Positions 49,624 through 64,000 of a DNA stretch of 64,000 bases are shown here, one piece after another. The stretch is from an uncultured Gammaproteobacteria bacterium (GTDB lineage: Bacteria > Patescibacteriota > Microgenomatia > Daviesbacterales > UBA10151): contig CAYOOO010000006.1 in the NCBI GenBank assembly GCA_964405655.1, forward strand, positions 3,671 through 67,670, given 5' to 3'. The notes beneath the pieces were generated by a model. The model did not search any database, had not been told where the DNA came from, and saw only the letters and a program-made list of their open reading frames with translations. Both the position numbers and the translations under genes were made by a program. Within the stretch, counting starts at the first letter, position 1. The number at the start of each line of letters is the position of its first letter.

Positions 49624-51007
49624 TCTTATTAATTAAGGAAATCAGTTCGTTTAATCTATCTGAATAGAACTTATTATCATAATAAAGATAATTTTTGATT
49701 GCAGCTGAACTAATACCCTTAAGTTTTCGTCTATTAAAATTGTCATTTGCATACTCGTTGAGCATTTTCTTAAATTTTGCTTTTAAGTCTTTTAAATTAT
49801 CAACAAAATACCAACCTGGTACTTGTCTTGCACCTTCAAAATGAGTCCAAAGAGAATGATCTTTTGGTGACATCGGATTGACATCTTCTGAGTTTGCTAA
49901 AATTAGTGAAGGGACGTCATAAATAGCTGCCTCTATTATTAAAGAAGATAGCGGAGAGATTATAAATAAAGCATGATTTAAAAGTCCTGGTAAATAATCG
50001 AGTTCCGGCAGATTCTTGCTGGTGGCAACTTCTTTACCAGCTTCTTTGTTAAAATAATAATCCTTTTCAACTTGTGGATCTAAAATCACATTTTTAAAGT
50101 CAGATTTATTAAAGAAATCATTTCCTTCTCTTTTTTGACGATTTGGGTGGGGACGGTAAATAATTTTGATCTTTAGTTCTGATTCTTCAATAGACTTATC
50201 TAGAATCTTAAGCGGACTGATTTCATCATGAGCTGTTTGAGAACCAGCAAAGACAATGTATTTAAAGGGAAAATGTTTTTGATTAGCTTTTTTAAGGATA
50301 AAATAATCTTCATAGCGAGGACATCCCAATAGAAAGCAATTTTCTGCTTTCATGCCTTGAATGTTTACAGCATGTACTAGACTTTGTGATCCCCAAACAC
50401 CCATAAAGTCAGGTAACTTTAGAAAAACTCCTTTACTGGACAGATTGTCCCAACCATGAATTAAAAAAAGAGATTGAAAGTCAAATTTTTTTGAAAGTAA
50501 TATTAGATCAATTGCAGTTCCTTCGTAACCTGCATAGGGAAAAATAACTAACTCTGGTTTGAATCTTTTAATTATTTTTTCAAGCGAGTTATTTTTTTCA
50601 AATCTTTTAAGTGTAATTGTTTTTATTAAATTAAAAAGAATAGGTTTTGAGAAAAGTGAATAGATAAGTCTTTCTTTGAAGGTATATCTTCCTGATTTAA
50701 TTTTTATATCAAATGTTTTAACAAACTTTCTTTTTGCCCACATTGAAATTTGATTAAAAACAGCAACTAAATTTTTGTTTTTAACACTTCTTTGGTAAAG
50801 AGAGTAAATTTTATCTTTGGAAACTCTTGAGATAAATTGAGTAGCGTTTTCTTCAACGCAGATTTTAAAATCTGGCAATTTAAGTAGACTATTAAAAGCT
50901 CCAGAATTTATGTAGTTTCTGAAAAAATGGTCATCATCAATAAGGCTTAAAATGCGCATAGGTTTTGCGGATTTAACTATAGCAGATTTTGTATAAACAC
51001 AAAACAA
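49610..51007 (-). CDS. Hypothetical protein with GT-B-like two-Rossmann-domain layout; likely true start at internal Met ('MRILSLIDDD', about 50959)
   Basis: Long ORF with alternating beta-alpha pattern; no named motif recognised. Confidence 0.3.
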   Translation of the reverse strand: MFCVYTKSAIVKSAKPMRILSLIDDDHFFRNYINSGAFNSLLKLPDFKICVEENATQFISRVSKDKIYSLYQRSVKNKNLVAVFNQISMWAKRKFVKTFDIKIKSGRYTFKERLIYSLFSKPILFNLIKTITLKRFEKNNSLEKIIKRFKPELVIFPYAGYEGTAIDLILLSKKFDFQSLFLIHGWDNLSSKGVFLKLPDFMGVWGSQSLVHAVNIQGMKAENCFLLGCPRYEDYFILKKANQKHFPFKYIVFAGSQTAHDEISPLKILDKSIEESELKIKIIYRPHPNRQKREGNDFFNKSDFKNVILDPQVEKDYYFNKEAGKEVATSKNLPELDYLPGLLNHALFIISPLSSLIIEAAIYDVPSLILANSEDVNPMSPKDHSLWTHFEGARQVPGWYFVDNLKDLKAKFKKMLNEYANDNFNRRKLKGISSAAIKNYLYYDNKFYSDRLNELISLINKIKSS

Positions 51008-51066: not shown

Positions 51067-52284
51067 ATGCCTTTAGCAGAGCAGCTTGTAGTTCATAGAA
51101 GAAACCTCGTAGATTCAAAACCAGATTTATACGTTCCAATTAATCTTTTTGATCCATTCGGTGAAATTTTAGGAGCCAGAGAAGGTAGGAAAAGATTGCT
51201 TTGGGGTTTTAGAGATGCTGGGGCTGCAGCCGCAGGTCTTCCAGTAATACGAGCCTTGCAGCAAGAAGCAGTTGATGTTTTTATCTTAGCAGATGGTCCT
51301 GCTCGTGATGCTTTAGAGAAAGACCCGCTTTATACAGAGACAAGATTGGTAAAGAATTTAGGTTGGACAATAACTGGACTCGGCCAAGATATAAGCATAT
51401 TAGGCCATGCAGTCAAACCTGATGTAGAACAAATTTTAACTGCTCATGCTAAGTATATAGGGATACCTACAGTTTGGTATGAAGATATGCCACCTTTCTT
51501 AGGCTTTTACAAAAGAGGCTTAGCTGCTGAAGGAAATTTATTTATCCCAGAAAGAATCTTTTGTTTCTCAGAAACTTCAGCTCAGCAAGAAATTGGATAC
51601 ATCCCACAGTTTGTTAGAAGAACAGTAGTAGTGGGAAACCCTGCTTTTGACAGATTTGCAGATATTGATGTAACAGGGATTAGACAGCGGACAAGAACTG
51701 GACTAGGGGTTGAGAGTGATGAGACCTGGTTTGTTTGGATGGCGACAAAAACTAGGGCTACTTTTGAATCATGTAGAGATTTTGTTGAAGGCATAAAAGC
51801 TTTGGATTTAGAACACTACCGTTTTAGTGCCAGAATACATCCAGCTGAAGCTAAAGATCCATTAGTCAAGGCAGAATATGATCAACTTCTTAAAACATTA
51901 GGTCGACATGCACTTGAAACAACTGGCTACTCAACAGATGATGTAGGAACTGCAGCAGATATAGTTGGAGGTGATACATCCACTGCTATTTTTGAGGCAA
52001 CACTAAATGATGTTAGAACTGTCACGCTCCTTATTCCTGAGAATATGGTCTTAAGGGATGAATGGGTAGAAGAACTTCCTCCTGATCCAGCAATTGTTTT
52101 AGATGGTACCAGTCCTGTGGTCAGAAGAAGAGATGATGTTAAAGATGTGTTACTTAAAGTGACTTCGGATAGTGAAACACAAGAAATGTTAAGGCAAAAA
52201 AGACAAGTTTGGAGAAAAGTTGTTGGTGGAGCGACTGAAAGATTCAAAGACAGATTGTTAGAAATTGCTTCTTCTAATAGTTAG
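51067..52284 (+). CDS. Hypothetical GT-B-like protein, candidate divergent UDP-GlcNAc 2-epimerase (NeuC/WecB-like); noticeably higher GC than neighbours
   Basis: 405 aa; 'VVVGNPAFDRF' placed like the WecB/NeuC 'GN-x-x-DA' segment; Ala/Arg-rich composition unlike the rest of the window. Confidence 0.3.
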   Translation: MPLAEQLVVHRRNLVDSKPDLYVPINLFDPFGEILGAREGRKRLLWGFRDAGAAAAGLPVIRALQQEAVDVFILADGPARDALEKDPLYTETRLVKNLGWTITGLGQDISILGHAVKPDVEQILTAHAKYIGIPTVWYEDMPPFLGFYKRGLAAEGNLFIPERIFCFSETSAQQEIGYIPQFVRRTVVVGNPAFDRFADIDVTGIRQRTRTGLGVESDETWFVWMATKTRATFESCRDFVEGIKALDLEHYRFSARIHPAEAKDPLVKAEYDQLLKTLGRHALETTGYSTDDVGTAADIVGGDTSTAIFEATLNDVRTVTLLIPENMVLRDEWVEELPPDPAIVLDGTSPVVRRRDDVKDVLLKVTSDSETQEMLRQKRQVWRKVVGGATERFKDRLLEIASSNS

Positions 52285-53057
52285 ATTTTGATTAGTTTCT
52301 TCTGCAGTAGTAATTCTGCCAGTAAAATATCATTAAGATTATCTATATCTAGCGCATCATCCTTATCCAGCATGACGTATCTGACCCTTTTGCCTGTTAG
52401 CAATCCCTCTTTCATCAAAACATTATATTTGACTGCTATTACATCAACATGGGCAAAAGCTGGAGGAAAAGATTGTCTGGGTGCATTTGAAGGCTCTTTT
52501 AACCCCGTCACTTCTTTGGGAATAAAAGGTTTTAGCTCGTTCCCATCTATCCTCCAAAGCTTATAAGGATGTTTAGGCGCACTTTTAATAGTTCTTGAGG
52601 AGGTTGCAATTGGGTCATCAATCAGCAGTTGAATGCAAGCATCAATTGATTCAGTTTTACAAAAAGGAGTTGTTGGGGGAAGTCTTAAAATAATATCTGC
52701 TTTCCATCCCTCATTTTCCTCAAGCCATTTGGTCGCATGCTGCAGATATGAGATATCATCAGCACTATCGTCTGAAATTTCCTTGGGTCGTAAAAAAGGC
52801 GCTTCAGCTCCATAAAGTTTGGCTATTTTGGCAAATTCTTCTGAATCAGTAGAAACTATGAGACGGCTGACCAATTTAGATCTTTTAGCAGATTCAATAA
52901 TCCAGGCCATCAAAGGTTTACCAGCTAAAGGATAAATATTTTTATAGGGAATGCTTTTTGAACCAGACCTTGCTCCAACTACACCCAAAACTTTCAACTG
53001 CTTATCTGAAAGAAAACTTTGCTTATCTGAATTAGATTTCATAAAGAAGAATTTCAA
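52281..53057 (-). CDS. CMP-nonulosonic acid synthetase family cytidylyltransferase (NeuA/PseF/KdsB-like)
   Basis: 'LGVVGARSGSKSIPYKNIYPLAGKPLMAW' matches the NeuA-family N-terminal motif. Confidence 0.7.
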   Translation of the reverse strand: MKFFFMKSNSDKQSFLSDKQLKVLGVVGARSGSKSIPYKNIYPLAGKPLMAWIIESAKRSKLVSRLIVSTDSEEFAKIAKLYGAEAPFLRPKEISDDSADDISYLQHATKWLEENEGWKADIILRLPPTTPFCKTESIDACIQLLIDDPIATSSRTIKSAPKHPYKLWRIDGNELKPFIPKEVTGLKEPSNAPRQSFPPAFAHVDVIAVKYNVLMKEGLLTGKRVRYVMLDKDDALDIDNLNDILLAELLLQKKLIKI

Positions 53058-53122
53058 GCCCGATAATACTTAAATAATTATCCTTGTGTCAATAGCTATG
53101 AGATTATATAATTCCCCCAGTT

Positions 53123-54214
53123 ATGAGTTCAGCAGAGTTATTTGGGCCAAACTCACATAGTCAATATAAAGTAGGTTGGGTGGAAATTGATAATTCTGTT
53201 AAAGATGAGGTAACAGCCGTTTTGTTGAATTGTTATCTATTTTCAAATGTTTCTCTAGCTAGTATTAAAGAGGTTGATGCTTGGGAAGTCATAAGCAAAA
53301 ATTATCGAGCACAAGTTATTGATGAAAGTGGTGACCGTAGAGATGTTGTACTGCACAAATTTTTAAGATTAAAAGATCCACAAACGATCAGGATATCCGG
53401 AGAGATAATAACTTTTCTACATAGAGAAGGAATAAAAGTACCGGAAATTGTGCGGACTGAAGGGAAAACGGATAGCTTTACTCAATACCAAGAAAATTGT
53501 TATCGAGTTTTTGAGTTTGTTGAAGGCGATCATTTTCGTGGAACCAAATCGGAACTTAAAGATTTTGCAGGCAACCTAGCTGCTTTTCATAAAACCCTGG
53601 AACATGCACCTTATCAGTCAGAACTTGCCTTAAGGCCAGCAGTTTCAGCAGCATGGGATATAGAAGGTTGGAGAGAATTGTTCGGTAGGGCAAGATCTGG
53701 TGAGAGTCCAATAGCTGGTCTGGTTTTATCGAGTAAAGATTTGATATTGGAGCAAGCCCAATTTATTAGTCAAGGTTTATGTCAACCATTTAATTTTAGA
53801 ACCCAAATAATCAGGGGCGATCTTCACCCTCATGACACAATTTATCAGAAAGGGAAACTTAGAGCTTTAGTGGATTTTGATGATATGAGAGTTGGCGAGT
53901 TAATGAGAGATGTTACTACAGCCTGTCATAGATTTGTTAGACAATTTATAGTTTATCAAGGTAGAGATTGGGAGGAGACTCTGGCTTTGGGTTTGGATCT
54001 TTTTGTCAATGAATATCTAAAAGTTAATTTGATATCAGACGCTGAGATTAGTGCAGGAGCTATCTTTATTGCTGATGAGTTATTAAGGAAGATTTATCGG
54101 GATCTTAATAAATATTATTTAGCAGGACAGACTCAATACTTAAGCGGAGGAGAGTTGGAAAAAAGACTTACGTTGCTTCAAGAATCAAAGATTATTAGTC
54201 AATATTTAAGATAA
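53123..54214 (+). CDS. APH-fold (aminoglycoside phosphotransferase/choline-kinase-like) small-molecule kinase, paralog 1
   Basis: 'IIRGDLHPHDTIY' (HxD catalytic loop) and 'VDFDDMRVGELMRDV' (Mg-binding D). Confidence 0.65.
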   Translation: MSSAELFGPNSHSQYKVGWVEIDNSVKDEVTAVLLNCYLFSNVSLASIKEVDAWEVISKNYRAQVIDESGDRRDVVLHKFLRLKDPQTIRISGEIITFLHREGIKVPEIVRTEGKTDSFTQYQENCYRVFEFVEGDHFRGTKSELKDFAGNLAAFHKTLEHAPYQSELALRPAVSAAWDIEGWRELFGRARSGESPIAGLVLSSKDLILEQAQFISQGLCQPFNFRTQIIRGDLHPHDTIYQKGKLRALVDFDDMRVGELMRDVTTACHRFVRQFIVYQGRDWEETLALGLDLFVNEYLKVNLISDAEISAGAIFIADELLRKIYRDLNKYYLAGQTQYLSGGELEKRLTLLQESKIISQYLR

Positions 54215-54244
54215 TTTTTAAAAATTACTTTAAGTTGCAGAAAT

Positions 54245-55327
54245 TCATTTACTGGTTTTTGCTCTGGTGATATCTTTTACTTCCATGTAATCAATCCTAC
54301 CTTCTCTTATAGCCTTTAATGCTAACTCTTTAAATCTGTTTGACCAACTATCCCTCAAACCATCAACAACACCGTAATATAAGGTAGCATTTCCAACTAC
54401 ATAATCAATCAGCAATACCTGTTCTAACCTTTGAGTTACTGAATCTTCCGGATCATAGATACCGCCAGCTTCATGATAGCCCATGAGAAAAGCTTGCTCA
54501 GCTTGTGAAGCTGCGTCACTATGCTGATAAAATAAGCTTCTTCTTAAATAATAAATGTCCAAAGAGGGTAGCCCTGCCTGACAATGTTCCAAGTCAAAAT
54601 AACCACTAGGCTTACCTGTCTCATCAACAAAAAAGTTCATTGAGTGTAAATCTGTTAATATCAACGAAGCTCTAGTCCTATCTCTTAAATCTCTTGCTAA
54701 AGTTGCTAATTCTCCTCTGATATATCTTTGTAAGTCTTCGGCTTCGGAGTTTTCTAAAACTCCTGTTTGATAAGCTCTTTGTAGTTTTACCTGAGATATC
54801 ATCTGAACTCTGTCTGCAAAATTGGAAATATTGTCGGGATGAACTAAATCAGCAGCCAATACATCTCCAAAACTATCAAAACTTACACCGTGAGCTTTGG
54901 CTAAATCCTTACCTAAAAATCCGAATGATCTTAGGAAACCATCTGTTAAGGGACCATTTTGTTTTAGATAGTCACTAAAGTAACCCCCTGGTAACTGCTC
55001 AACCAGCAAAACTGGATGAGGAGTATCTTCATATAAACCATAAACTCTGGGTGTAGGTAAGCCAGCTTTATTTCTAACTAGCTCCATTAAGTCCTTTTCC
55101 CGCCTTAAAGATAATGGTCCGTTAAACTGAAAATCCCTCCTTAGCCCATCTGCAGAAGAGACTAATTGGGGTTTTTCAAATCTGGCAATCATACTTAATT
55201 CTTGGGGGACTGATGTAGTGACACGAAAGATATTGTGAGATCTCCCTTCAGGAATGAAGGTAGCGGTTGATATTTCATATCCGATAGCATTAAGAGCTTG
55301 GATTGCTTGCTGTTCTGAAAGAGACAT
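54245..55327 (-). CDS. APH-fold phosphotransferase-family kinase (divergent)
   Basis: 'LILTDLHSMNFFVDETGKPSGYFDLEHCQAG' catalytic-loop/DFG-like region. Confidence 0.6.
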   Translation of the reverse strand: MSLSEQQAIQALNAIGYEISTATFIPEGRSHNIFRVTTSVPQELSMIARFEKPQLVSSADGLRRDFQFNGPLSLRREKDLMELVRNKAGLPTPRVYGLYEDTPHPVLLVEQLPGGYFSDYLKQNGPLTDGFLRSFGFLGKDLAKAHGVSFDSFGDVLAADLVHPDNISNFADRVQMISQVKLQRAYQTGVLENSEAEDLQRYIRGELATLARDLRDRTRASLILTDLHSMNFFVDETGKPSGYFDLEHCQAGLPSLDIYYLRRSLFYQHSDAASQAEQAFLMGYHEAGGIYDPEDSVTQRLEQVLLIDYVVGNATLYYGVVDGLRDSWSNRFKELALKAIREGRIDYMEVKDITRAKTSK

Positions 55328-55427
55328 ACGGCACCAATTATATACGTAGGTTGCAAATTAAACAATGAAAGCATGAGCCTTTACAACCTCCAGTCATTCC
55401 AATAAAATACCCTAGAATTGTTGTAAT

Positions 55428-56258
55428 ATGCCAGAGAATTATCTTAGGAAGATATTTAACTTGGAAAAAAGGGTAGCAGTTATAACTGGTGGTTTGGGAA
55501 AATTAGGTAGTCAATATGCCGAGGCTTTGGTTAAAACAGGTGCCAGGGTTGCAGTCTTTGATATTATTGATACTCCAAATGATACTTTGAAAAAACTATC
55601 TAAAAAGTTCCCTATTTTGTTTTTAAAAGTTGATATTACTAAGGAGGAAGAAGTTAAAGAAGCTGTTGATCGAGTTGTTAAAAAGTGGGATGTACCAACA
55701 ATTTTAATAAATAATGCTGGTTGGAAAGCCTCACCTAATGAAAATCAAAAAGCTAGTGTTCCTTTTGAAGATTACCCGATTGATACCTGGGATGAGGTTT
55801 TTAAAATCAACACTACAGCTGCGGTAATTTGCAGCAAGATTATTGGAGGTTTGATGATCAAAAGAAAAAAGAAGGGCTCGATTATTAACATCGCCTCCCA
55901 TTATGCTTTAGTTTCTCCTGACCAAAGAGTCTATCAATATAAAGAGAAACAAGGCAAAGGAAAATTTGTTAAAGATGCTTCTTACTCATCATCAAAAGCA
56001 GCCTTAATTTCCTTAACCAGAGACTTAGCTACTCAATGGGCATCTTTTGGTATCCGGGTTAACTCTTTTTCTCCAGGAGGAGTGTTCAACCCAAAAAGCG
56101 ATAAAGAGTTTTTAAAAGAATATACTTTCAGAACACCACTTGGCAGAATGGCCAGTGTAGATGAATATAACGGAGCAATTATTTTCCTGGCTTCTGATGC
56201 TTCCTCTTATATGACAGGGGCAAATTTGGTAATGGATGGGGGTTGGACTGCATGGTAA
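55428..56258 (+). CDS. Short-chain dehydrogenase/reductase (classical SDR)
   Basis: 'VAVITGGLGKLGSQYA' TGxxxGxG; 'YSSSKAA' YxxxK. Confidence 0.8.
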   Translation: MPENYLRKIFNLEKRVAVITGGLGKLGSQYAEALVKTGARVAVFDIIDTPNDTLKKLSKKFPILFLKVDITKEEEVKEAVDRVVKKWDVPTILINNAGWKASPNENQKASVPFEDYPIDTWDEVFKINTTAAVICSKIIGGLMIKRKKKGSIINIASHYALVSPDQRVYQYKEKQGKGKFVKDASYSSSKAALISLTRDLATQWASFGIRVNSFSPGGVFNPKSDKEFLKEYTFRTPLGRMASVDEYNGAIIFLASDASSYMTGANLVMDGGWTAW

Positions 56259-57733
56259 ACAGTAAAAATAATCCCTACCCTAAAAAAATTCCTCACTGGA
56301 TTTCCAACAAGGAAGTTTTTTCAGAAAATAAAAAATTTATTCCAAAATTTAGTCCTGTAACAGGTAAGAAAATAGCAGAAATAACCAGCGGATCCAAAAA
56401 AGATGTCAAAGAAGCAATTACTTTAGCTCAGCTAACTTACAAATCCTGGATGAATAGTTCAATTATGTTCAGAGCTGAGATAATCAAGAAAGCGACCTTT
56501 TATATAGAAGCAAATAAAGAAGAAATTGCCCAAATTCTCTCATTGGAAACTGGCCGTTCTAAAAAGGATGCATTAGGAGAAGTTAGATCTGCAGTTGAAT
56601 ATGGTCTTTACTGGAGTAGTGAGGCAAAGAGATTTTTCGGCGTAACAACTACCAGTTCTAACCCTAATAGGTCAGCCTATATGGTCCGCTCTCCAGTTGG
56701 AGTTTGTGCATTAATTACTCCTTTTAATGGTCCTTTCTCAGGGATGGTTAAAAAAATTTATCCTGCTTTGCTTTGTGGAAATACTGTAATTTTAAAATCT
56801 CATGAGCTAACCCCTTTTACCGCTATCTGGCTGGCAAAAGTTTTAAAGGAGGTGGGGCTAGAAGAAAATATCTTCCAAGTTATCCAAGGGTTAGGTAGTG
56901 AAGCAGGGGCAGCAATTATTGAAGATGACAGAATTGGTCTTATTAGTTTTACTGGGTCAGTAAACACAGGTAGGTACTTACTCAAAGTCGCTGCAGATCG
57001 GATAGGTAAGGTCTGTTTGGAGCTTGGGGGAAAAAACCCACTGGTAGTTTGCGATGATGCAGATTTGGAACATGCAGCTAAGACGACAGTGGCTTCTGCT
57101 TTTATTGAGGCAGGTCAAAGATGCGCTGCAGCCAGCAGAGTTATTATTTTTGATTCTGTATATGAACAGTTTAAAAAACTCTTAATAGAGGAAACATCAA
57201 AACTCAAGATAGGTTCTACAGATGAAGATAAAATTTGTCCTTTAATAAGTCAAAAGAGACTTGACGAGGTACTCGCTATCACTAATCGGGCGGTCAGACA
57301 AGGAGCTAAGGTTTTAATTGGAGGAAAAAGACTTACTGACCCAATTCATAAAGCTGGATATTACATGGAACCAACTATTTTAGAAAGTGTTTCTGCCAAA
57401 GATGAAATCTCTCGGAAAGAAGTTTTTGGCCCGGTTGTTTGTTTATATCAGGTTAAAGATTTTGATCAAGCTGTTGAACTGGCTAATGATTGCGATTTTG
57501 GTTTAACTAGCGCAATTCACACGCAAAGTTTAGATAGAGCCCATGTTTTTACAAAACTTTCTGAAGCTGGAGTGGTTAGGGTTAATGGACCAACTCACGG
57601 CAGTGAAAATCATATGCCTTTTGGCGGAGTCAAACTTTCTGGAAATGGTTTCAGAGAGCCTGGTACAAATGCACTAGATATTTATTCAGAATGGAAGTTT
57701 ATTACTATTGACTACAATCCGAATAAACTGTAG
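56243..57733 (+). CDS. NAD(P)-dependent aldehyde dehydrogenase
   Basis: 'LELGGKNP' Glu active-site motif; 'FTGSVNTG'; catalytic Cys in 'GQRCAAASR'. Confidence 0.8.
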   Translation: MDCMVNSKNNPYPKKIPHWISNKEVFSENKKFIPKFSPVTGKKIAEITSGSKKDVKEAITLAQLTYKSWMNSSIMFRAEIIKKATFYIEANKEEIAQILSLETGRSKKDALGEVRSAVEYGLYWSSEAKRFFGVTTTSSNPNRSAYMVRSPVGVCALITPFNGPFSGMVKKIYPALLCGNTVILKSHELTPFTAIWLAKVLKEVGLEENIFQVIQGLGSEAGAAIIEDDRIGLISFTGSVNTGRYLLKVAADRIGKVCLELGGKNPLVVCDDADLEHAAKTTVASAFIEAGQRCAAASRVIIFDSVYEQFKKLLIEETSKLKIGSTDEDKICPLISQKRLDEVLAITNRAVRQGAKVLIGGKRLTDPIHKAGYYMEPTILESVSAKDEISRKEVFGPVVCLYQVKDFDQAVELANDCDFGLTSAIHTQSLDRAHVFTKLSEAGVVRVNGPTHGSENHMPFGGVKLSGNGFREPGTNALDIYSEWKFITIDYNPNKL

Positions 57734-57751
57734 TATCTAAAAATTGTAACT

Positions 57752-59668
57752 ATGGCAGAAAACGAAAAGGTCTTAACTTATGTTCCTCTGCCTGAGATAA
57801 AAAGAATAAAGATCGGGGTTAAAAACCCAATCAAGCAAGCTGAATTACTCTCAGATATCTTCAGGATCAATACTCTTTATATGATAGAAAAAGCTGGGTC
57901 TGGACACCTGGGAACCAGTTTTAGCTCAATAGATATTGTTACTTGGTTAATGTTGAATGAGCTAAGAAACCCCAATAATCCTGGTAAAAATCCTTCTGAT
58001 ACTTATTTTTCATCAAAGGGTCATGATGTACCAGCTCTCTATTCTATTTTAATGGGGTTGGGACAACTGGACTTTGAAAATATCCATCGATTAAGGAGAC
58101 TAAACGGTTTACCAGGACACCCAGATGTTTCAATACCATCTCTTGTGACCAATACTGGGTCTTTGGGCATGGGTATCTCAACTGCTAGAGGAATAGCTTT
58201 TGTTGATCATTTAAATAAACATCAAGGAAGATTATATGTTTTAACAGGTGATGGTGAGTTGCAGGAAGGGCAAATTTGGGAAAGTTTACAGCCTACTGCA
58301 AATGGTAAATATGATGATATTACTGTGATTGTTGATCATAATAAGATTCAGTCTGATACTTGGGTAGAAAGAGTCAGTTCGTTGGGAAATCTTGAAAAAA
58401 GATTTGCTGCTCATGGTTGGGAAGTAACCAGATGTAATGGACATGATTTTGCGGCTTTGCAAAAAACACTGGCCAGATTAAGAAAAGTTAAAGGGCGTCC
58501 TCAAGTTTTGATAGCAGATACCATCAAGGGCAAAGGAGTCTCATTTATGGAAAGGGTAGAAAGTGATGGTTTATATAAGTTTCATGCTGGTGCGCCAAGT
58601 TACGAACAGTACCAGGCAGCTTTTCAGGAGCTATCAAGTCGGGTTAATGAACGACTAGAATCCCTAAAGCTTAGACCCCTGGAGTTAGAAGAAGTAAGAC
58701 TACCAGCCACTCCTTCAACAGTTAAGAAGTTAGTCCGACTGACCAATGATTATGGTGAGGAAGTGATCGAAATCGGTAAGGATAGGAAAGATTTAATAGT
58801 TTTAGATGCAGATCTGATTAAAAGTTGTGGCTTGATTGGTTTTGCCAAACAGTTTCCTGAAAGATTTATTGAGTGCGGCATAGCTGAACAGGATATGATC
58901 TCAGAGGCAGGAGGAATAGCCTTAAGAGGTGGTCTACCCATTGCTCATTCACTTGCCTGTTTCTTATCAACTAGACCTAATGAACAGATCTATAAACAAG
59001 CCACCGAACAAACAAAAATTATTTATGTAGGTTCTCAAGCAGGGTTACTGCCGGCAGGACCAGGACACTCTCATCAATCGGTTAGAGATATTGCTTGTTT
59101 AGGAGCAGTACCGGGCTTAATTCTTCTAGAACCCTCAAACGGAAAAGAGACTAGAATGGGGCTTCGCTGGGCAGTTTATAGAAACAATCGCAGCACATAT
59201 CTTCGTCTGGTAAGTAACGCAACTGATATTCCCTTTGAACTTCCTAAGAACTATCAATTAAAGGTTGGTAAGGGTGTATTACTTAAAGGAGGTAAAGATG
59301 CCGCAATCCTTTCTTATGGACCAACTATGTTAACAGAGGCTTGGAAGGCAGCGCAGATACTTGCTGAAGATGAAATAAGCTTAGCAGTCATTAATCTACC
59401 TTGGTTAAATAGATTAGATGATAGTTGGTTGAAAAGTGTTGTACGTAAATATCGAACAATTTTTACTCTAGATGATCATTACTTGGAACAGGGTCAAGGA
59501 GCTATGATCGCTACCCACTTAGCCAAACTTGGACTTGTAACCAGTCTAGTTATGTTTGGAGTAGAAGAAATTCCTGCTTGCGGAAGTAATCAGGAAGTGC
59601 TTGAATATCATGGTTTAGATGCTAAATCACTTGCAAAAAAGATTCAAAAAAACCTCAAAAGAAGTTAA
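57752..59668 (+). CDS. Transketolase-family ThDP enzyme (N-terminal TPP/PP domain fused to Pyr and C-terminal domains in one 638-aa chain)
   Basis: 'GSGHLGTSFSSIDIV' ThDP-binding N-terminal motif; 'GDGELQEGQIWES'; C-terminal 'LACFLSTR...YVGSQAGL...GPGHSHQS'. Confidence 0.7.
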   Translation: MAENEKVLTYVPLPEIKRIKIGVKNPIKQAELLSDIFRINTLYMIEKAGSGHLGTSFSSIDIVTWLMLNELRNPNNPGKNPSDTYFSSKGHDVPALYSILMGLGQLDFENIHRLRRLNGLPGHPDVSIPSLVTNTGSLGMGISTARGIAFVDHLNKHQGRLYVLTGDGELQEGQIWESLQPTANGKYDDITVIVDHNKIQSDTWVERVSSLGNLEKRFAAHGWEVTRCNGHDFAALQKTLARLRKVKGRPQVLIADTIKGKGVSFMERVESDGLYKFHAGAPSYEQYQAAFQELSSRVNERLESLKLRPLELEEVRLPATPSTVKKLVRLTNDYGEEVIEIGKDRKDLIVLDADLIKSCGLIGFAKQFPERFIECGIAEQDMISEAGGIALRGGLPIAHSLACFLSTRPNEQIYKQATEQTKIIYVGSQAGLLPAGPGHSHQSVRDIACLGAVPGLILLEPSNGKETRMGLRWAVYRNNRSTYLRLVSNATDIPFELPKNYQLKVGKGVLLKGGKDAAILSYGPTMLTEAWKAAQILAEDEISLAVINLPWLNRLDDSWLKSVVRKYRTIFTLDDHYLEQGQGAMIATHLAKLGLVTSLVMFGVEEIPACGSNQEVLEYHGLDAKSLAKKIQKNLKRS

Positions 59669-60308
59669 AGCAATTGTTTTTGATTTTGATGGAGTATTGG
59701 TTGACTCCCTCGAATTTAAGAGAGAAGCTTACTTTAAGTTATTTCCTACAAAGTACTCTCAAGTTGTAACAAAAACTCTTAAAGAAATGGATGGACGCAT
59801 AAGATCGGAAATAATTTCTACGATTCTTATAAAAACTGGCTTACCGAAAAAAGATCTTAAAGACAAACTAGATAAGTATATTAAAAAATATAACTATCTT
59901 GTTGAAGAGCAGATAATCAAAAAGGGTCTTATTGAAGGAGTTAAAAAGACTTTAAAAGATCTTTCAAAGACTGGTAATATTTATCTCAATTCATCAACCC
60001 CACAAGATTCTTTAGAAAGATGCATTAATGGATTAAAAATCAGGAACTTATTTAAAGAAATTTACGGAAAAACTAATAATAGAGGGAAAAAAGACAATTT
60101 GTCACGAATACTTGAGAATTCTAACTACTCGCTAAATGAGGTTGTGGTTGTAGGTGATAGTATAGATGACTTCTTAATTGCTAAAGAATTAAGCTGTCTG
60201 TTTATTGGTATTTCTAATCAATTTAGTAAATGGGAAGAAATTTCTTTTCCAATATTAAACAATATTTCAAAAATCCAAAGTTTTCTTAAAAATCCAGATG
60301 GCGATTAA
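59619..60308 (+). CDS. HAD-superfamily hydrolase/phosphatase
   Basis: Motif I 'AIVFDFDGVLVDS'; motif IV 'VVVGDSIDD'. Overlaps transketolase 3' end by 50 nt, so start uncertain. Confidence 0.65.
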   Translation: MLNHLQKRFKKTSKEVKAIVFDFDGVLVDSLEFKREAYFKLFPTKYSQVVTKTLKEMDGRIRSEIISTILIKTGLPKKDLKDKLDKYIKKYNYLVEEQIIKKGLIEGVKKTLKDLSKTGNIYLNSSTPQDSLERCINGLKIRNLFKEIYGKTNNRGKKDNLSRILENSNYSLNEVVVVGDSIDDFLIAKELSCLFIGISNQFSKWEEISFPILNNISKIQSFLKNPDGD

Positions 60309-61371
60309 AGTTTTTGCACCTAATATTCACAGCAAATATAAGATTAATTGGAAAAAAATACTACCTCAAGCGGAAGAGGAGATCAGCAACTTATTTCTCA
60401 AAAATTATAACTTTGACCGGGTTTTAATGATTGAAGAAGTAGATGAATGGGAACGGCTTAGTAATAACTTCAAAATTTTGGCTACTAAAAACAATCATCA
60501 GGTCACTGTTCTTCTAAGAAAACACATCCAACTTAAAGATTTAAAGAGCATTAAAGCATTAGACAAAATATTGCTATATCTACAAAGTCGGGGATTAAAT
60601 GTACCAAAAGTTATTCCTATTAAAAAGAATAAATTATTTTTCAAAAACCAGGGCTACTATTTTCAGCTTTATGAATTCATTCAAGGTGCTCATTTTAAAG
60701 GAACAACAAAACAACTGATAAAGATTGCAGGCTTCATTGCTAAATTACATAAGATTTTTGAAAAAGTTCCTTTTACAAAGGAGATTTCTAAGAAGCCATC
60801 TGTTCTACCACCATGGGATTTTAAAATATGGCAATCTCTTTTACAGATTTCCAAAAATAGAAAAGAAAAACTTGATAAAGTTATTCAAAGTAATGAATTT
60901 TTTATTTTGAGAGAGTGCCAAGTTGTTAAGGATAAAATTAGTTCAATGTCTCAACCCAAAGTTCAAGTAATCAGAGGAGATCTCCACCCACATGATACTA
61001 TCTTTGTAGGCAATGATCTTAATGCCCTTATTGATTTTGAAGGAGTGAGAGTAGGGGAGTTAATTAGAGATGTTGGCAATGCTTGCCACAGATTTGTTAG
61101 ACAATATGTTGTCTATCAAAAAAATGATTGGAGGTTAACCTTACCAAAAGGAATAAAAATTTTTTTATCTAACTACGTTAAGTTTAATCCAATTTCACCA
61201 GAAGAAATTAAGTTGATACCTATTTTTATAAAAGATGAAATATTAAGGAAATTACATAAGGATATTAGCCTATACTACTATAACGATTACCCAGCAAATT
61301 TAGAAGGAGGAGAACTTGAGAAAAAACTAACTCTTCTTAAAGAAGCCTCGTTAATAGAAAAATATATTTAA
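60298..61371 (+). CDS. APH-fold small-molecule kinase, paralog 2 (close relative of 53123..54214, low-GC version)
   Basis: 'VIRGDLHPHDTIF', 'IDFEGVRVGELIRDVGNACHRFVRQYVVYQ' near-identical motifs to paralog 1. Confidence 0.65.
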   Translation: MAIKVFAPNIHSKYKINWKKILPQAEEEISNLFLKNYNFDRVLMIEEVDEWERLSNNFKILATKNNHQVTVLLRKHIQLKDLKSIKALDKILLYLQSRGLNVPKVIPIKKNKLFFKNQGYYFQLYEFIQGAHFKGTTKQLIKIAGFIAKLHKIFEKVPFTKEISKKPSVLPPWDFKIWQSLLQISKNRKEKLDKVIQSNEFFILRECQVVKDKISSMSQPKVQVIRGDLHPHDTIFVGNDLNALIDFEGVRVGELIRDVGNACHRFVRQYVVYQKNDWRLTLPKGIKIFLSNYVKFNPISPEEIKLIPIFIKDEILRKLHKDISLYYYNDYPANLEGGELEKKLTLLKEASLIEKYI

Positions 61372-61388
61372 CTTCTTTCATAACAAAG

Positions 61389-62354
61389 TTAGAGCTTTCG
61401 CTCATACTCATCAGGGTATTTACCAAGCTGAACTAAAAAGATTAAATCTAAGAGTTTTCTTATAACATGTTCTCCTCTCTTAGCAGGAACAACTAGACCT
61501 ACTTCTTTAAGTACTTGTGGTTGAGCATCTGAAGGGCAAGCTGACAACCCAACCACTCTCATCAAAGGTAGGTCGTTAACATCATCACCAATGTAACAAA
61601 CCTCCTCTAAATCTAACCCCCAATCTTTTGCCATCTGCTTAGCTGCAGCTACCTTATCTAAAATCCCATGAACATAAGTTAATTTAAGTTTTTCAGCTCG
61701 ATGAGCTATTATAGGTACGGTTTCTCTGCTAATAATTCCTACATGGCGACCTAAGCCCTGCCAAGGTAGAAGAGCTAGGCTATCAATCCTTGAAAATGCG
61801 ACTGATTCAACTCCTTCTTGGTTGACCCAAACTTTTCCATCAGTCATTGTTCCATCTACATCCATAATCAATCCTTTGATTCTTTTAATTTTTTCATTTA
61901 ACTCTTCAGGTAACCTCTCCTCATCCCAGTAGTCTGCTAAGTACCTCTTTGTTGTTAGATAAATTAGTGGTTCTCCTCTTCTCGGAATGGTTTGGTGAGC
62001 CATACCAGCGGGGATAGTCAAAAAATCTCCAGTCCCAACCCGCTGTTTTTGAGAGTTGTTAATCTCTGTACCCCTCCATTCAAATAGTGATCTAAAAGTC
62101 CGATCAACTACATCACTGCCAGTCTCAATAGTCCCTATCCCTCTAACAACATAAACAATATCAGCAGCCATCTCGTGAATTTCAACTTTAGTAGGTTGAG
62201 TAGCTCTGTTTAGTGACACCAAAGGTCTTGAAAAGCTATCCCTTTGTAGAACGAGAGTTTTTCCTCCAGAGGCCTCTAAACTCTTAACTAAATCAGATAT
62301 AAACTCGACTGTAGCCATTCCTTCGAGCAGATTTTGCGATTTCGATATGTTCAA
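61389..62354 (-). CDS. Two-domain protein: N-terminal cupin-like domain + C-terminal KdsC-type HAD-IIIA phosphatase (nonulosonate/KDO-type sugar-phosphate phosphatase)
   Basis: 'IKGLIMDVDGTMTDGKVWV...' (KdsC 'DVDGVLTDG' motif), 'YIGDDVNDLPLM'. Start overlaps neuB-like 3' end by 62 nt (internal Met available). Confidence 0.65.
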   Translation of the reverse strand: MNISKSQNLLEGMATVEFISDLVKSLEASGGKTLVLQRDSFSRPLVSLNRATQPTKVEIHEMAADIVYVVRGIGTIETGSDVVDRTFRSLFEWRGTEINNSQKQRVGTGDFLTIPAGMAHQTIPRRGEPLIYLTTKRYLADYWDEERLPEELNEKIKRIKGLIMDVDGTMTDGKVWVNQEGVESVAFSRIDSLALLPWQGLGRHVGIISRETVPIIAHRAEKLKLTYVHGILDKVAAAKQMAKDWGLDLEEVCYIGDDVNDLPLMRVVGLSACPSDAQPQVLKEVGLVVPAKRGEHVIRKLLDLIFLVQLGKYPDEYERKL

Positions 62355-63393
62355 GAGTAATTGCCTGATCTACCTTAACTTCTTTAATCAATCTTTTACC
62401 CAATACTTTATCTATCATATGTGGTGGTAATCCCTCACAAGGTGATTTTATAGCCAAGTCATTTCTAGTCAAGATATGACCGGCATTTAATTTCTTAGTA
62501 GCAACAATACATTTACCCATCTTATACTTCATTGCAGATTCGCCTTCGTAAAACTTCTTAGTTCCATTACCTAAAGCTAGTCTAATCCTCCTTAGATCTC
62601 TGATGACTTTTCTTAAGCCTTCAAACTCTAAAGAGAAAGCATGATCAGAACCTTTCATGGCCCTGTTTAAAGTAAAATGTTTTTCAATAATTCTGGCGCC
62701 TAAGGCATAGGCGACAGGATCAACAGATATTCCATTATAGTGGTTTGAGAAACCAATTACTGTATCGGGAAAGATCCTTCTGTAAGTTTCAATAACTCTT
62801 AAATCAAGATGCTCGGCCATACAAGGATACATAGAAGTGCACTGCAAAAGGGCGATATTTTTATTAATTTTGTAAACTGCGTCAAATGCTCTTTTGACGT
62901 CGTCTAAGGTAGCAGTTCCAGTCGAAACTATCATTGGTTTTTTAAATCTTGCAATATAGGTAAGCAGGGGAATACTGTGAATATCAGAAGAGGCTGTTTT
63001 AAAACAACTTACTCCAATTTCATTTAAGAAATCAGCGCTTTTGTAATCCCAAGCAGTAGCAAAGAAGATCATGCCCAGCTTTTTAGCATATCTTTTAAGT
63101 TGCAGATATTCTCTTTTATTAAATTCTAAAGCTTGTCGATGTAGGCCATAAGTAGGCGCAAATGCATGCTCGGAATTATAGGTCGAGTTAAAAAAAGAGC
63201 GGGTAAACAGGATTCGATTGTGGCGTTTTTGTATTTTGACTGAGTCTGCTCCGCAAAAGCTTGCTAAATCGAATAATCTCTTACAGGTTTCTATATCACC
63301 CTGATGGTTTTGTCCGATCTCAGCTATAAAGAAACAGTCGCTTTCGTCGTTGATTACCTTGCTTTCGATTATTAGTTGTCTTTTTTTGGCCAT
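62293..63393 (-). CDS. neuB: N-acylneuraminate (nonulosonic acid) synthase family, PEP-condensing, with C-terminal SAF/antifreeze-like domain
   Basis: 'FFIAEIGQNHQGDIETCKRLFDLASFCGADSVKIQKRH' NeuB N-terminus; C-terminal 'KCIVATKKLNAGHILTRNDLAIKSP' SAF domain. Confidence 0.75.
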   Translation of the reverse strand: MAKKRQLIIESKVINDESDCFFIAEIGQNHQGDIETCKRLFDLASFCGADSVKIQKRHNRILFTRSFFNSTYNSEHAFAPTYGLHRQALEFNKREYLQLKRYAKKLGMIFFATAWDYKSADFLNEIGVSCFKTASSDIHSIPLLTYIARFKKPMIVSTGTATLDDVKRAFDAVYKINKNIALLQCTSMYPCMAEHLDLRVIETYRRIFPDTVIGFSNHYNGISVDPVAYALGARIIEKHFTLNRAMKGSDHAFSLEFEGLRKVIRDLRRIRLALGNGTKKFYEGESAMKYKMGKCIVATKKLNAGHILTRNDLAIKSPCEGLPPHMIDKVLGKRLIKEVKVDQAITLEHIEIAKSARRNGYSRVYI

Positions 63394-63558: not shown

Positions 63559-63942
63559 TTAGACATTTTTAATTCTACCAAGAAAATGCCTATAATTAAA
63601 AATGCTCTTTTGCAAACCACGCAGCTTCTTAAGTAATTTCCTAATCACACCTAAATGATTACTTTCTTCCAAGGTTGGCAACTGTGAATAGTCCAAGTCT
63701 AAAAGTCTTAGTTCTGATAATTCATAATATTTTCTGAGTATGGAACTAACAGTGGTAAGTTGGTTGTTATGCGGAGATCTTTCTCTATTAAGACTGTAGA
63801 TTAGGGGGATTTTCAGATCCTTAGTTTTTTTGATATATTGATCAACTTGTTGGCTTGTCATTTCTTGGAAAGAAACCATATTAATTAATAATTTGATAGG
63901 GTTGGTTTTTAATTTATCCCAGAGGAAGTTTGGTATAAACAC
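63559..63942 (-). CDS. Hypothetical protein (possibly 5'-extended beyond the track's first Met toward the window end)
   Basis: 127-aa ORF; no motif recognised. Confidence 0.4.
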   Translation of the reverse strand: MFIPNFLWDKLKTNPIKLLINMVSFQEMTSQQVDQYIKKTKDLKIPLIYSLNRERSPHNNQLTTVSSILRKYYELSELRLLDLDYSQLPTLEESNHLGVIRKLLKKLRGLQKSIFNYRHFLGRIKNV

Positions 63943-64000
63943 AAAATCATATTTAGCAGTATCCTTTAAATTGTCTAGTTGTTTTTGACTAGTGATAATC

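Follow-up and report, generated by a model that had tools for sequence, protein, structure and literature searches.

A widely conserved six-enzyme cassette in a CPR bacterium and a tentative route to a CMP-activated seven-carbon ulosaric acid

Which activated sugar is made by a locus of a CPR/Patescibacteria bacterium that holds a nonulosonic acid synthase, a phosphatase and a CMP-transferase? The original prediction for the window (the whole stretch of 64,000 nucleotides analysed here) was a sialic acid- or Kdn-like module working through a 9-phosphate. We found that the genes on which it was based are part of a larger six-enzyme cassette, which is conserved widely and apparently uncharacterised so far. 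We tentatively propose, at somewhat less than even confidence, that the locus encodes a route to a CMP-activated 3-deoxy-2-ulosonic acid via a terminally phosphorylated intermediate, followed by chain shortening. A Kdn-like acid would be oxidised to its 8-keto form, a transketolase (TK) would take off C8-C9, and an aldehyde dehydrogenase (ALDH) would complete a CMP-activated 3-deoxy-heptulosaric acid. If true, this would be a route to a double acid of seven carbons for which no biosynthetic pathway has been described. The features of the locus are collected in Table 1.

Table 1. Features of the cassette and its neighbours (window positions).
Coordinates	Strand	Feature	Basis or remark
49610..51007	-	Soluble 465-aa protein with H-x-WDNL-x2-KG motif, second candidate transferase	Motif, orthologues
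51067..52284	+	GT-B-fold TagF-like protein	Candidate transferase for the CMP-activated sugar
52281..53057	-	Predicted CMP-ulosonic acid synthetase, NeuA/PseF type	CTP_transf_3, E 5.5e-19
53123..54214	+	APH-fold kinase APH1	Accessory
54245..55327	-	APH-fold kinase APH2	Accessory; orthologue in locus L004
55428..56258	+	Classical SDR with long Ser-Tyr loop	adh_short_C2, 160 bits
56243..57733	+	Aldehyde dehydrogenase	Aldedh, 486 bits
57752..59668	+	Single-chain transketolase variant	Three TK domains
59619..60308	+	HAD-IA (HAD_2) phosphatase, overlaps TK gene end	Accessory; window and L004 only
60298..61371	+	APH-fold kinase APH3	Accessory; APH1 paralogue, 38% identity
61389..62318	-	Cupin (N-terminal, ~61869-62318) and KdsC-type C0 HAD phosphatase (C-terminal, ~61389-61868)	
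62293..63393	-	NANS-like NeuB-family synthase with SAF domain	Pfam NeuB, SAF
63559..64000	-	C-terminal part of a gene of a ~350-aa family, runs off window end	

Synthase, phosphatase and CMP-transferase

The four open reading frames first singled out (synthase, cupin-phosphatase fusion, CMP-transferase and GT-B-like protein) all exist where they had been placed, and the central parts of the module are borne out: a NeuB-family synthase, a KdsC-type phosphatase translationally coupled to it, and a NeuA-type CMP-transferase. The synthase matched Pfam NeuB with 244.5 bits (E 1.4e-72) and SAF with 32 bits, which places it in the NeuB family and not with KdsA. It scored 279 bits against the NCBIfam equivalog NeuB (cut-off 400) and 226 bits against PseI (cut-off 340); the phosphatase, the CMP-transferase and the TK likewise stayed under their equivalog cut-offs. 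Comparison with what we take to be the sequence of human NANS gave 279 bits and 39% identity over ~345 aa with one gap. The same method gave 149 bits for SpsE and 124 bits for PseI, and N. meningitidis NeuB reached 125 bits (phmmer). By sequence, the animal enzyme NANS is thus a nearer relative of the synthase than NeuB, PseI and SpsE are. Its relatives at 51-70% identity number in the thousands and are spread over many phyla; across phyla, it is 51-57% identical to the synthases of the 79 other loci retrieved.

The open reading frame of the cupin-HAD fusion spans 61389-62354 on the minus strand. Starting from the ATG at 62318, it encodes a 309-aa product identical to a database protein (P0011), which marks this ATG as the real start; the gene shares 26 nt with that of the synthase. 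The HAD half scored 108 bits (E 4e-31) against the NCBIfam KDN-9-P phosphatase, below the cut-off of 180, and 101 bits against the KdsC subfamily; its best PDB match was BT1713 (3E81, 96 bits). Alignment with BT1713 showed that the KDN-9-P phosphatase specificity residues E56, R64 and K67 are present, and they are kept in 40 of 40 cassette phosphatases, while a Legionella KdsC-like protein carries A, R and Q at these positions. Together with the closeness of the synthase to NANS, these residues support the phosphorylated-intermediate route that had been predicted. The fusion is indeed uncommon: a search of 5.8 billion proteins brought up only 13 full-length relatives (44-61% identity), and their named sources are Candidatus Daviesbacteria. 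The cupin is a lineage-specific accessory, for which precursor isomerisation or ring-opening/anomerisation are candidate roles.

Translation of the CMP-transferase probably starts at the ATG at 53042. The protein matched PseF with 122 bits, below cut-off, and its PDB matches were of the NeuA/PseF type (68-88 bits vs at most 28 bits for KdsB); with its CTP_transf_3 domain, they confirm it as a NeuA-family cytidylyltransferase. We also scanned the window against Pfam, covering open reading frames of at least 100 aa minus three members of two paralog arrays (18343-19968 and 30713-33975). As predicted, no Leg/Pse aminotransferase or N-acetyltransferase was found among them.

The GT-B-like gene beside the CMP-transferase had been proposed as a divergent UDP-GlcNAc 2-epimerase, which did not hold: it gave no Epimerase_2 signal at E<=1, and its relatives match PF04464 (TagF-like), so that judged by these relatives a transferase is the likelier reading. 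The adjoining 465-aa protein, which has no Pfam match, has orthologues in loci L005 and L008 (449-464 bits) and its motif recurs in a protein cluster (c17) of 14 non-CPR loci.

SDR, ALDH and transketolase linked to the synthase

The interval 53123-61371 had been passed over as a gap. While the genes of the predicted module are real, this interval holds an SDR, an ALDH and a TK that are conserved partners of the synthase across phyla. Synthase, cupin-HAD, SDR, TK and CMP-transferase occur together in 7 of 7 CPR loci, and ALDH in 4 of 7. For the other phyla, we counted genes in the 59 non-CPR loci, representing about a dozen phyla, in which 8 kb or more of sequence followed the synthase. The SDR was present in 54 of them, ALDH in 46, the CMP-transferase in 41, TK in 34 and the KdsC-HAD in 26; 33 of the 34 loci bearing TK also bear ALDH. 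The genes are co-oriented, with the modal order synthase, HAD, SDR, ALDH, CMP-transferase, TK. Isolates that carry the cassette include Rhodocista pekingensis, Tistlia consotensis, Henriciella marina and Moorena bouillonii. TK is absent within 10 kb in ~40% of loci (e.g. Moorena), and ALDH is absent from three CPR loci and from a Streptomyces linear plasmid with synthase, SDR and TK; the three enzymes therefore form no obligate unit. Their conservation with the synthase nevertheless makes plain Kdn or Neu5Ac an unlikely product. The next conserved gene downstream of TK, in 22 non-CPR loci, is KpsC/KpsS-like (PF05159; cluster c14), from a family of CMP-Kdo-dependent transferases.

The three APH-fold kinases, of which APH2 shows no sequence relationship to the other two, and the HAD-IA phosphatase are lineage-specific accessories. 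The truncated gene at the window end has no Pfam match. Its phmmer matches (L005 6140-7201 and L007 5357-6421; L069, L050, L028 and L078 outside the CPR) show that this family adjoins the cassette at other loci too.

The SDR best matched gluconate 5-dehydrogenase in NCBIfam (171 bits, below cut-off) and 6UH2 in the PDB (132 bits). Its family keeps the S157/Y186/K190 triad, and the Ser-Tyr spacing is 23-34 residues in 81 of 81 members, an unusually long loop that ElaC has as well. Structure 6UH2 was the search model for solving ElaC, an SDR that reduces CMP-8-keto-Leg5,7Ac2 at C8 (PMC13656337). Gluconate 5-dehydrogenase, the nearest curated model, itself makes a terminal ketol. In NCBIfam, the ALDH came nearest to the models for alpha-ketoglutaric semialdehyde dehydrogenase and 2,5-dioxovalerate dehydrogenase (380-384 bits, under the cut-offs), enzymes that work on the aldehyde end of 2-keto-3-deoxy acids. 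The Glu of the ELGG motif and the catalytic Cys are kept in 60 of 60 ALDHs.

The best PDB match of the TK was human TKT (225 bits). In human numbering, H37, H77, H110, H258, D155, N185 and E366 are kept in 45 of 45 cassette TKs, D424 is replaced by Pro in all 45, and S345 by Asp in 43. R318 has become V, I, A, S or T, H416 L, Y, Q or F, and R474 S, I or T. Catalytic and cofactor residues are thus intact, and the phosphate-binding residues and Asp424 are gone. The residue that aligns with human R471, three places ahead of R474, is an invariant Arg, and binding of an anionic group could still be possible through it. We take R358, H461 and R520 of the E. coli enzyme to be equivalent to human R318, H416 and R474, by the residue correspondences between human, yeast and E. 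coli TKs. The naturally non-basic positions are those mutated in the engineered E. coli TktA R358I/H461S/R520Q, which gains cleavage of 5-keto-gluconate to tartaric semialdehyde (PMC12016104).

A proposed pathway and its alternatives

The base pathway (synthase, phosphatase, CMP ester, transfer to the glycan) can be read from the protein families and the residues they conserve, while for the trimming steps we infer from the linkage of the genes, the substitutions in active sites, and known precedents. The synthase would condense PEP with an aldose phosphate to a 3-deoxy-2-ulosonate phosphate; the simplest substrate would be mannose-6-P, giving Kdn-9-P. The HAD domain would strip the phosphate from this product, and the NeuA/PseF-type enzyme would form the CMP ester. 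Acting on the ulosonic acid or on its CMP ester, an ElaC-like SDR would turn the penultimate hydroxyl, at C8, into a ketone and so leave a terminal hydroxyacetyl (ketol) group; ElaC itself, however, works as a reductase while oxidation falls to a separate enzyme, ElaA, and the cassette has none such. The variant TK would take the 8-keto sugar acid as ketol donor, cutting C7-C8 and removing the terminal two-carbon ketol. The C7 aldehyde left behind would be turned by the ALDH into a carboxylate (alternatively, the ALDH could scavenge glycolaldehyde). The end product would be a 3-deoxy-hept-2-ulosaric acid (C7H10O8), of the sugar class of Dha. One or both adjoining GT-B-like proteins would pass it to a glycan from the upstream 50-kb glycosyltransferase locus.

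The reading of the original prediction, plain CMP-Kdn (or CMP-Neu5Ac) made via the 9-phosphate with SDR, ALDH, TK, kinases and HAD-IA as unrelated neighbours, is unlikely. Synthase, phosphatase and CMP-transferase would suffice, as in the known BT1713/BT1714-type pathway, and in 8 of the 59 loci the SDR alone adjoins the synthase. This leaves aside the co-oriented SDR, ALDH and TK genes of many phyla, the SDR and TK of every CPR locus, and the family-wide substitutions in the substrate site of the TK, which are not expected for a housekeeping enzyme. We also hold it improbable that the SDR merely tailors a nine-carbon acid by an ElaC-like epimerisation or reduction, at C8 or elsewhere, the chain staying uncut and TK and ALDH serving carbon supply or detoxification. 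The ElaC precedent with its common long loop, the SDR being the tightest-linked partner, and the loci devoid of TK are all consistent with such tailoring, but the oxidase partner is missing, and neither the TK-ALDH pairing nor the TK's loss of phosphosugar-binding residues and Asp424 is explained.

It is quite improbable that TK, SDR and ALDH precede the synthase and supply an unusual aldose phosphate, or that TK extends the oxidised sugar by two carbons to a C10-C11 acid. Transketolases usually interconvert sugar phosphates, CPR bacteria often send carbon through the pentose phosphate pathway, and the TK gene of the window is translationally coupled with those of a kinase and a phosphatase. 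Against this, the TK carries other residues at the phosphate-binding positions and Asp at position 345 in 43 of 45 cases, neither scheme offers an evident task for the ALDH, and the conservation of the synthase across phyla and its identity to NANS argue for an ordinary hexose-6-P as substrate. A mammalian-type Neu5Ac-9-P pathway, in which the TagF-like protein would be a hydrolysing UDP-GlcNAc 2-epimerase of divergent sequence and one of the APH-fold kinases a ManNAc 6-kinase, is very improbable in view of the missing Epimerase_2 signal and the PF04464 relatives; in other phyla a KpsC/S-like transferase follows TK, and most CPR loci with the remaining genes do not have the kinases.

Comparison with known systems

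Like the cassette, the Kdo pathway (KdsA, KdsC, KdsB) condenses PEP with a sugar phosphate, uses a phosphatase of the KdsC family and activates its product with CMP. However, the cassette synthase is of the NeuB family, the Glu and Lys of its HAD are of the Kdn type and not the KdsC type, and its CMP-transferase matches KdsB weakly. The vertebrate NANS/NANP/CMAS pathway is alike in its NANS-like synthase, phosphorylated intermediate and CMP-transferase, but the cassette lacks a GNE-type epimerase/kinase, its phosphatase is KdsC-type and not NANP-type, and it has additional redox and TPP enzymes. In the Kdn pathway of B. thetaiotaomicron (BT1714 synthase, BT1713 phosphatase, CMP-Kdn synthetase), a NeuB-family synthase likewise adjoins a KdsC-type C0 HAD and CMP activation follows. 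D10, D12, E56, R64 and K67 of BT1713 are all conserved in the cassette HAD. That pathway has no cupin fused to its phosphatase and needs no SDR, ALDH or variant TK, which the cassette conserves.

ElaABC of Acinetobacter baumannii KL49, which epimerises CMP-Leg5,7Ac2 at C8 (PMC13656337), also has an SDR and a CMP-transferase beside a nonulosonate synthase, and ElaC resembles the cassette SDR through 6UH2 and the extended Ser-Tyr loop. The cassette differs in having neither a Gfo/Idh/MocA oxidase (ElaA) nor N-acetyl groups to recognise; moreover, its 8-keto group would bear CH2OH and so be a ketol, with TK and ALDH following. A route to tartrate by TK and a semialdehyde dehydrogenase has been proposed (PMC12016104; see also PMC7970118). 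Although this conversion of 5-keto-D-gluconate via tartaric semialdehyde to L-tartrate is catabolic or engineered, starts from a C6 acid and has no link to CMP activation or glycan assembly, it follows the same logic: a dehydrogenase makes the ketol, TK removes two carbons and an ALDH makes the diacid.

Synthase, phosphatase and cytidylyltransferase

The synthase combines a NeuB TIM-barrel (PF03102, 244.5 bits against a gathering cut-off of 22.1) with a C-terminal SAF/antifreeze-like domain (PF08666, 32.1 bits against 21). Its H218 and H239, located in the S-x-H and E-K-H motifs, are invariant in the 31 family members aligned, and we take this pair to be the metal site as in N. meningitidis NeuB. 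The protein scored under the NCBIfam equivalog cut-offs of NeuB_NnaB (279.5 vs 399.65) and PseI (226.4 vs 340.25). BLASTP gave 279 bits (39% identity, one gap) with human NANS, against 149 with SpsE and 124 with PseI, a comparison which is indicative and not decisive. The CMP-transferase matches PF02348 (CTP_transf_3) at 69.3 bits (gathering cut-off 22.6); NeuA and PseF structures of the PDB were found at 68–88 bits, against at most 28 bits for KdsB, and the score was under the PseF equivalog cut-off (122 vs 205.7). These data uphold the original prediction of a NeuB-family synthase with a SAF domain and of a NeuA-family cytidylyltransferase. A KdsA-type synthase and a Kdo assignment were rejected since the synthase belongs to the NeuB family and the CMP-transferase does not resemble KdsB. 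A Leg/Pse pathway was also rejected: aminotransferase, acetyltransferase and PseB/LegB-type dehydratase were all absent among the ORFs of the window that were scanned.

The HAD domain shows motif I DVDGTMTDG (DxDGT) and motif IV GDDVNDL (GDDxND) and has no cap domain. Its closest solved relative in the PDB is BT1713, the KDN-9-P phosphatase of B. thetaiotaomicron, and the E56A mutant structure of this enzyme (4HGQ) is among the matches. The equivalents of BT1713 D10, D12, E56, R64 and K67 are kept in all 40 cassette HADs aligned. Work by Lu and colleagues in 2009 is said to have identified Glu56 and Lys67 as Kdn-specific, along with Arg64. At the positions of E56, R64 and K67, the cassette proteins have E, R and K, whereas A, R and Q stand there in 3N1U, a KdsC-like protein of Legionella, and R, R and T in E. 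coli KdsC. The HAD scored under the NCBIfam cut-offs for KDN-9-PPhBT (108.2 vs 180) and for the KdsC subfamily (101.2 vs 106.95), probably as a result of the fusion and of divergence. Furthermore, the translational coupling of synthase and phosphatase is conserved in the CPR loci. The specificity residues of the HAD, the likeness of the synthase to NANS and this coupling support a route through a phosphorylated intermediate, so that the 9-phosphate idea of the original prediction is retained. The two outcomes named there as contrary to it, a synthase grouping with KdsA and a HAD devoid of the family's specificity features, are both ruled out. The coupled phosphatase likewise supports a 6-phosphorylated hexose as the predicted substrate of the synthase. 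Taken as a whole, a base pathway in which a ulosonic acid is formed through a phosphorylated intermediate and activated with CMP is highly probable.

The fusion of this phosphatase to a cupin had been called uncommon, and indeed only 13 full-length relatives occur in 5.8 billion proteins; we rate it as new. In the cupin, H108 is invariant and E46, H48 and D53 are near-invariant, and these four residues plausibly form a metal site. HMMER, run exhaustively, recovered 24 relatives at E≤1e-10, for the most part single cupins or bicupins without a name, and NCBIfam models run on ten of them returned nothing useful. A sugar-phosphate isomerase or an ulosonate ring-opening/anomerase enzyme are guesses only.

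Conservation of the cassette

The genes named in the original prediction were found as described, but the interval 53123–61371 had been passed over. It encodes three APH-fold kinases, a classical SDR, an ALDH, a fused transketolase (TK) and a HAD-IA phosphatase. The cupin-HAD fusion was found in six further loci, and SDR and TK adjoin it in all six. A CMP-transferase is annotated in each of them except L005, a CPR comparison locus, and the synthase is present wherever the contig permits. ALDH occurs in four of the seven CPR loci, the window included.

A scan restricted to a single genome per species says more. It gave 80 loci with 51–73% identity to the synthase of the window, distributed over Chloroflexota, Acidobacteriota, Gemmatimonadota, Alphaproteobacteria, Vampirovibrionales, Cyanobacteria (Moorena), Actinomycetota, Verrucomicrobiota, Planctomycetia and others. 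Partners were counted in the 59 loci having at least 8 kb downstream of the synthase: SDR was present in 54, ALDH in 46, the CMP-transferase in 41, TK in 34 and a KdsC-type HAD in 26. The genes are almost always co-oriented, most often in the order synthase, HAD, SDR, ALDH, CMP-transferase, TK, and ALDH accompanies TK in 33 of the 34 TK-bearing loci. A Streptomyces linear plasmid, the record of which is unannotated, carries synthase, SDR and TK. Since the partners recur across phyla, the window holds the CPR version of a widespread cassette. The cupin fusion is special to the CPR lineage, and the kinases and HAD-IA are, among the loci compared, restricted to the window and to L004, the locus most closely related to it. 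About 40% of the loci have no TK within 10 kb; in Moorena, for example, only the synthase, the SDR, a 298-aa protein without known role and the ALDH are found. Three CPR loci and the Streptomyces locus lack ALDH. No earlier account of the cassette was found in a literature search which left most subscription journals outside its coverage, so that prior work is possible.

The three APH-fold kinases and HAD-IA lie within the cassette (53123–55327 and 59619–61371). APH1 and APH3 are paralogous (38% identity) and APH2 is unrelated to them. The overlap of HAD-IA and of APH3 with the gene in front of each suggests that they are translationally coupled to TK.

Variable inserts were seen in the CPR cassettes L005, L007 and L008 (see the table), all of them related to 2-keto-3-deoxy sugar-acid chemistry. 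L008 and L009 come from an assembly (GCA_964567705.1) whose title reads 'uncultured Gammaproteobacteria bacterium'. It has a synthase sharing 73% identity with that of the window and carries the CPR-specific cupin-HAD fusion; its taxonomic label or bin is probably wrong. The gene leaving the end of the window is one of a family with proteins of about 350 aa and no Pfam match, members of which also lie near the cassette in L005 and L007 and, outside CPR, in L069, L050, L028 and L078.

Several proteins next to the cassette were considered for the transfer step. The GT-B-like protein encoded next to the CMP-transferase gene had been proposed as a divergent UDP-GlcNAc 2-epimerase. It gave no Pfam match at E≤1, hence no Epimerase_2 signature (PF02350), and a homologue matches PF04464; the protein is therefore more likely a TagF-like transferase than an epimerase, the fold search itself not separating the two. 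In 22 of the non-CPR loci (L010–L088), the gene after TK, at about +7 kb from the synthase, encodes a 569-aa KpsC/KpsS-like protein (PF05159, 23.6 bits). This family comprises CMP-Kdo-dependent transferases, and the protein is likely to be the dedicated transferase for the CMP-sugar of the cassette. The window also encodes a soluble protein of unknown family with an H-x-WDNL-x2-KG motif; in L005 and L008 an orthologue adjoins the cassette, and relatives sharing the motif occur in 14 non-CPR loci.

Features of the window and inserts of the CPR comparison loci
Feature	Locus	Position	Strand
AsnB-like glutamine amidotransferase	window	12227-14050	
Membrane-protein array, 3 copies	window	14964-19968	
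GHMP kinase (NDP-heptose module)	window	22442-23419	
SIS/GmhA-like isomerase (NDP-heptose module)	window	23454-24056	
Nucleotidyltransferase (NDP-heptose module)	window	25032-25775	
GmhB-like HAD (NDP-heptose module)	window	25772-26275	
NAD-dependent epimerase/dehydratase (NDP-heptose module)	window	26268-27386	
Membrane-protein array, 4 copies	window	27430-33975	
Tandem GT4 protein	window	38101-40332	
Soluble protein, H-x-WDNL-x2-KG motif	window	49610-51007	
TagF-like candidate transferase	window	51067-52284	+
CMP-transferase	window	52281-53057	-
APH1	window	53123-54214	+
APH2	window	54245-55327	-
SDR	window	55428-56258	+
ALDH	window	56243-57733	+
TK	window	57752-59668	+
HAD-IA	window	59619-60308	+
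APH3	window	60298-61371	+
Cupin-HAD fusion	window	61389-62318	-
Synthase	window	62293-63393	-
Gene leaving the window	window	63559-64000	-
KDPG-type aldolase	L005	13927-14619	
DHDPS/NanA-family aldolase, P-loop kinase	L007	11790-13415	
MR/MLE-type dehydratase, ApbA-type reductase, stand-alone cupin	L008	2623-5122	

SDR, transketolase and ALDH in a putative trimming branch

The nearest curated model of the SDR is gluconate 5-dehydrogenase, which yields a terminal HOCH2-CO- group by oxidising a sugar acid at its penultimate carbon. The Ser-Tyr-Lys triad is present in all 81 cassette SDRs, with 23–34 residues from Ser to Tyr, and ordinary SDRs have roughly 12–13. The top PDB relative is 6UH2 (132 bits vs at most 104 for the others), the molecular-replacement model for ElaC, which reduces the 8-keto group of CMP-8-keto-Leg5,7Ac2 (PMC13656337). 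In ElaC, S145 and Y168 are separated by a long V150-P165 loop proposed to hold the CMP moiety (PMC13656337). The cassette SDRs share the elongated Ser-Tyr loop with ElaC, the tie between the sequences being their common nearest solved relative 6UH2. ElaC, however, is a reductase that works with a separate oxidase.

The TK protein matches all three TK domains of Pfam and contains the TPP/Mg motif GDG...N, with scores under the equivalog cut-offs (387 vs 488). In 45 of 45 cassette TKs all cofactor and catalytic residues are kept, the cofactor-activating Glu and the catalytic His residues included; they are the equivalents of human H37, H77, H110, H258, D155, N185 and E366. At the position of human Q428 these proteins have His, like the TKs of bacteria. 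The substrate channel, by contrast, is changed systematically at the Arg, Ser, His and Arg that bind the phosphosugar and at the Asp that contacts the acceptor C2-OH: R318 of human TKT is replaced by V/I/A/S/T, S345 by D (43/45), H416 by L/Y/Q/F, R474 by S/I/T and D424 by P (45/45). We take human R318, H416 and R474 to correspond to the phosphate-binding R358, H461 and R520 of E. coli, and D424 to yeast D477, the residue by which the acceptor C2-hydroxyl is read. Three residues before R474, an Arg remains invariant and might bind a carboxylate. The triple substitution R358I/H461S/R520Q in E. coli TktA enhances the cleavage of 5-keto-gluconate to tartaric semialdehyde (PMC12016104); this engineered enzyme is changed at the same positions that are replaced naturally in the cassette TKs.

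The catalytic Glu and Cys of ALDH are intact in all 60 proteins aligned. It comes closest to the models of alpha-ketoglutaric semialdehyde and 2,5-dioxovalerate dehydrogenases, enzymes that act on the terminal aldehyde of a 2-keto-3-deoxy acid; a PDB search at E≤1e-90 gave zero matches.

According to the proposed route, the synthase would condense PEP with a hexose-6-P to a nonulosonate-9-P, the HAD would remove the phosphate to give the free acid, and the SDR would convert this into an 8-keto acid. TK would then move the C9-C8 ketol to some acceptor, leaving a C7 aldehyde that ALDH would turn into a 3-deoxy-hept-2-ulosaric acid. CMP activation would take place at some point of the route, and the adjacent TagF-like or KpsC/S-like proteins would then transfer the sugar. 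Family membership is the basis for the predicted synthase, HAD and CMP-activation/transfer steps. The three steps of trimming we infer from gene linkage, from the patterns seen in the active sites and from the precedents of ElaC and of the tartrate route. By our own stereochemical reasoning, 8-keto-Kdn seen from its C9 end would present the D-threo arrangement needed by TK donors, and its C6 oxygen would be tied in the pyranose ring, making Asp424 redundant. D-lyxo Dha as the exact product was rejected because, by the same bookkeeping, trimmed Kdn would be the L-arabino isomer.

Several observations weigh on the trimming branch. The ALDH could instead serve to remove glycolaldehyde. Given this possible role, the loci devoid of TK, the gaps in the occurrence of ALDH and the reductive direction of ElaC, we place the full model with SDR, TK and ALDH trimming slightly below an even chance. 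We regard the cassette as a nonulosonate module that carries a putative tailoring branch built on transketolase, for which no earlier description was found.

The glycan locus and relation to known sugars

The window is almost wholly one glycan-assembly locus of a low-GC (30–38%) organism, with a Wzx-like flippase, more than 15 GT2/GT4 genes, arrays of GT-C-like membrane proteins, methyltransferases, an AsnB-like amidotransferase and an NDP-heptose module. Where the source gives names, the homologues closest to the cassette proteins are from Candidatus Daviesbacteria, Curtissbacteria and Yanofskybacteria, all CPR/Patescibacteria. An exact-sequence look-up found identical proteins in one 75-kb NCBI/Logan metagenomic contig only, and the proteins are singletons at 90% identity. 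The NDP-heptose module (22442–27386) looks complete, so that at least two unusual sugars are expected from the locus. The two tandem arrays consist of paralogous membrane proteins of about 540–565 aa. Two copies were scanned in each: both were PMT_2 in the first array, and they were YfhO/PTPS_related and PMT_2/PMT in the second. Every copy scanned is GT-C-like; for a CPR bacterium with a small genome, so many lipid-linked-donor glycosyltransferases in one place are unusual. The AsnB-like protein may amidate the carboxylate of a uronic or ulosonic acid. In addition, one protein of 743 aa is composed of two complete GT4 modules in tandem.

Nonulosonic acids shape the recognition of microbes by hosts, phages and neighbours, and thousands of proteins now named 'N-acetylneuraminate synthase' probably make something other than Neu5Ac. 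If the product is the shortened dicarboxylic acid, it would be a common, unrecognised surface sugar in many uncultured, soil or aquatic phyla, including the ultra-small, cell-attached bacteria of the CPR. The LPS cores of Rhizobiaceae are reported to contain Dha (Russa 1991, cited in PMC5713287). For the Dha class, which is found in these cores, in prasinophyte thecae and in plant rhamnogalacturonan-II, reviews of 2012 and 2025 count the biosynthesis and the activated form among the unknowns (PMC3355719, PMC12168206). A tentative and on balance unlikely proposal is that the cassette supplies the route still missing for the synthesis of CMP-activated 3-deoxy-heptulosaric acids across CPR, Alphaproteobacteria, Chloroflexota, Acidobacteriota, Cyanobacteria and Streptomyces, with a new use of transketolase in trimming a glycan building block. 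Should it be true, it would provide a concrete enzyme set for heptulosaric acids and natural transketolases pre-adapted to non-phosphorylated sugar acids, a property for which engineers have needed mutation (PMC12016104).
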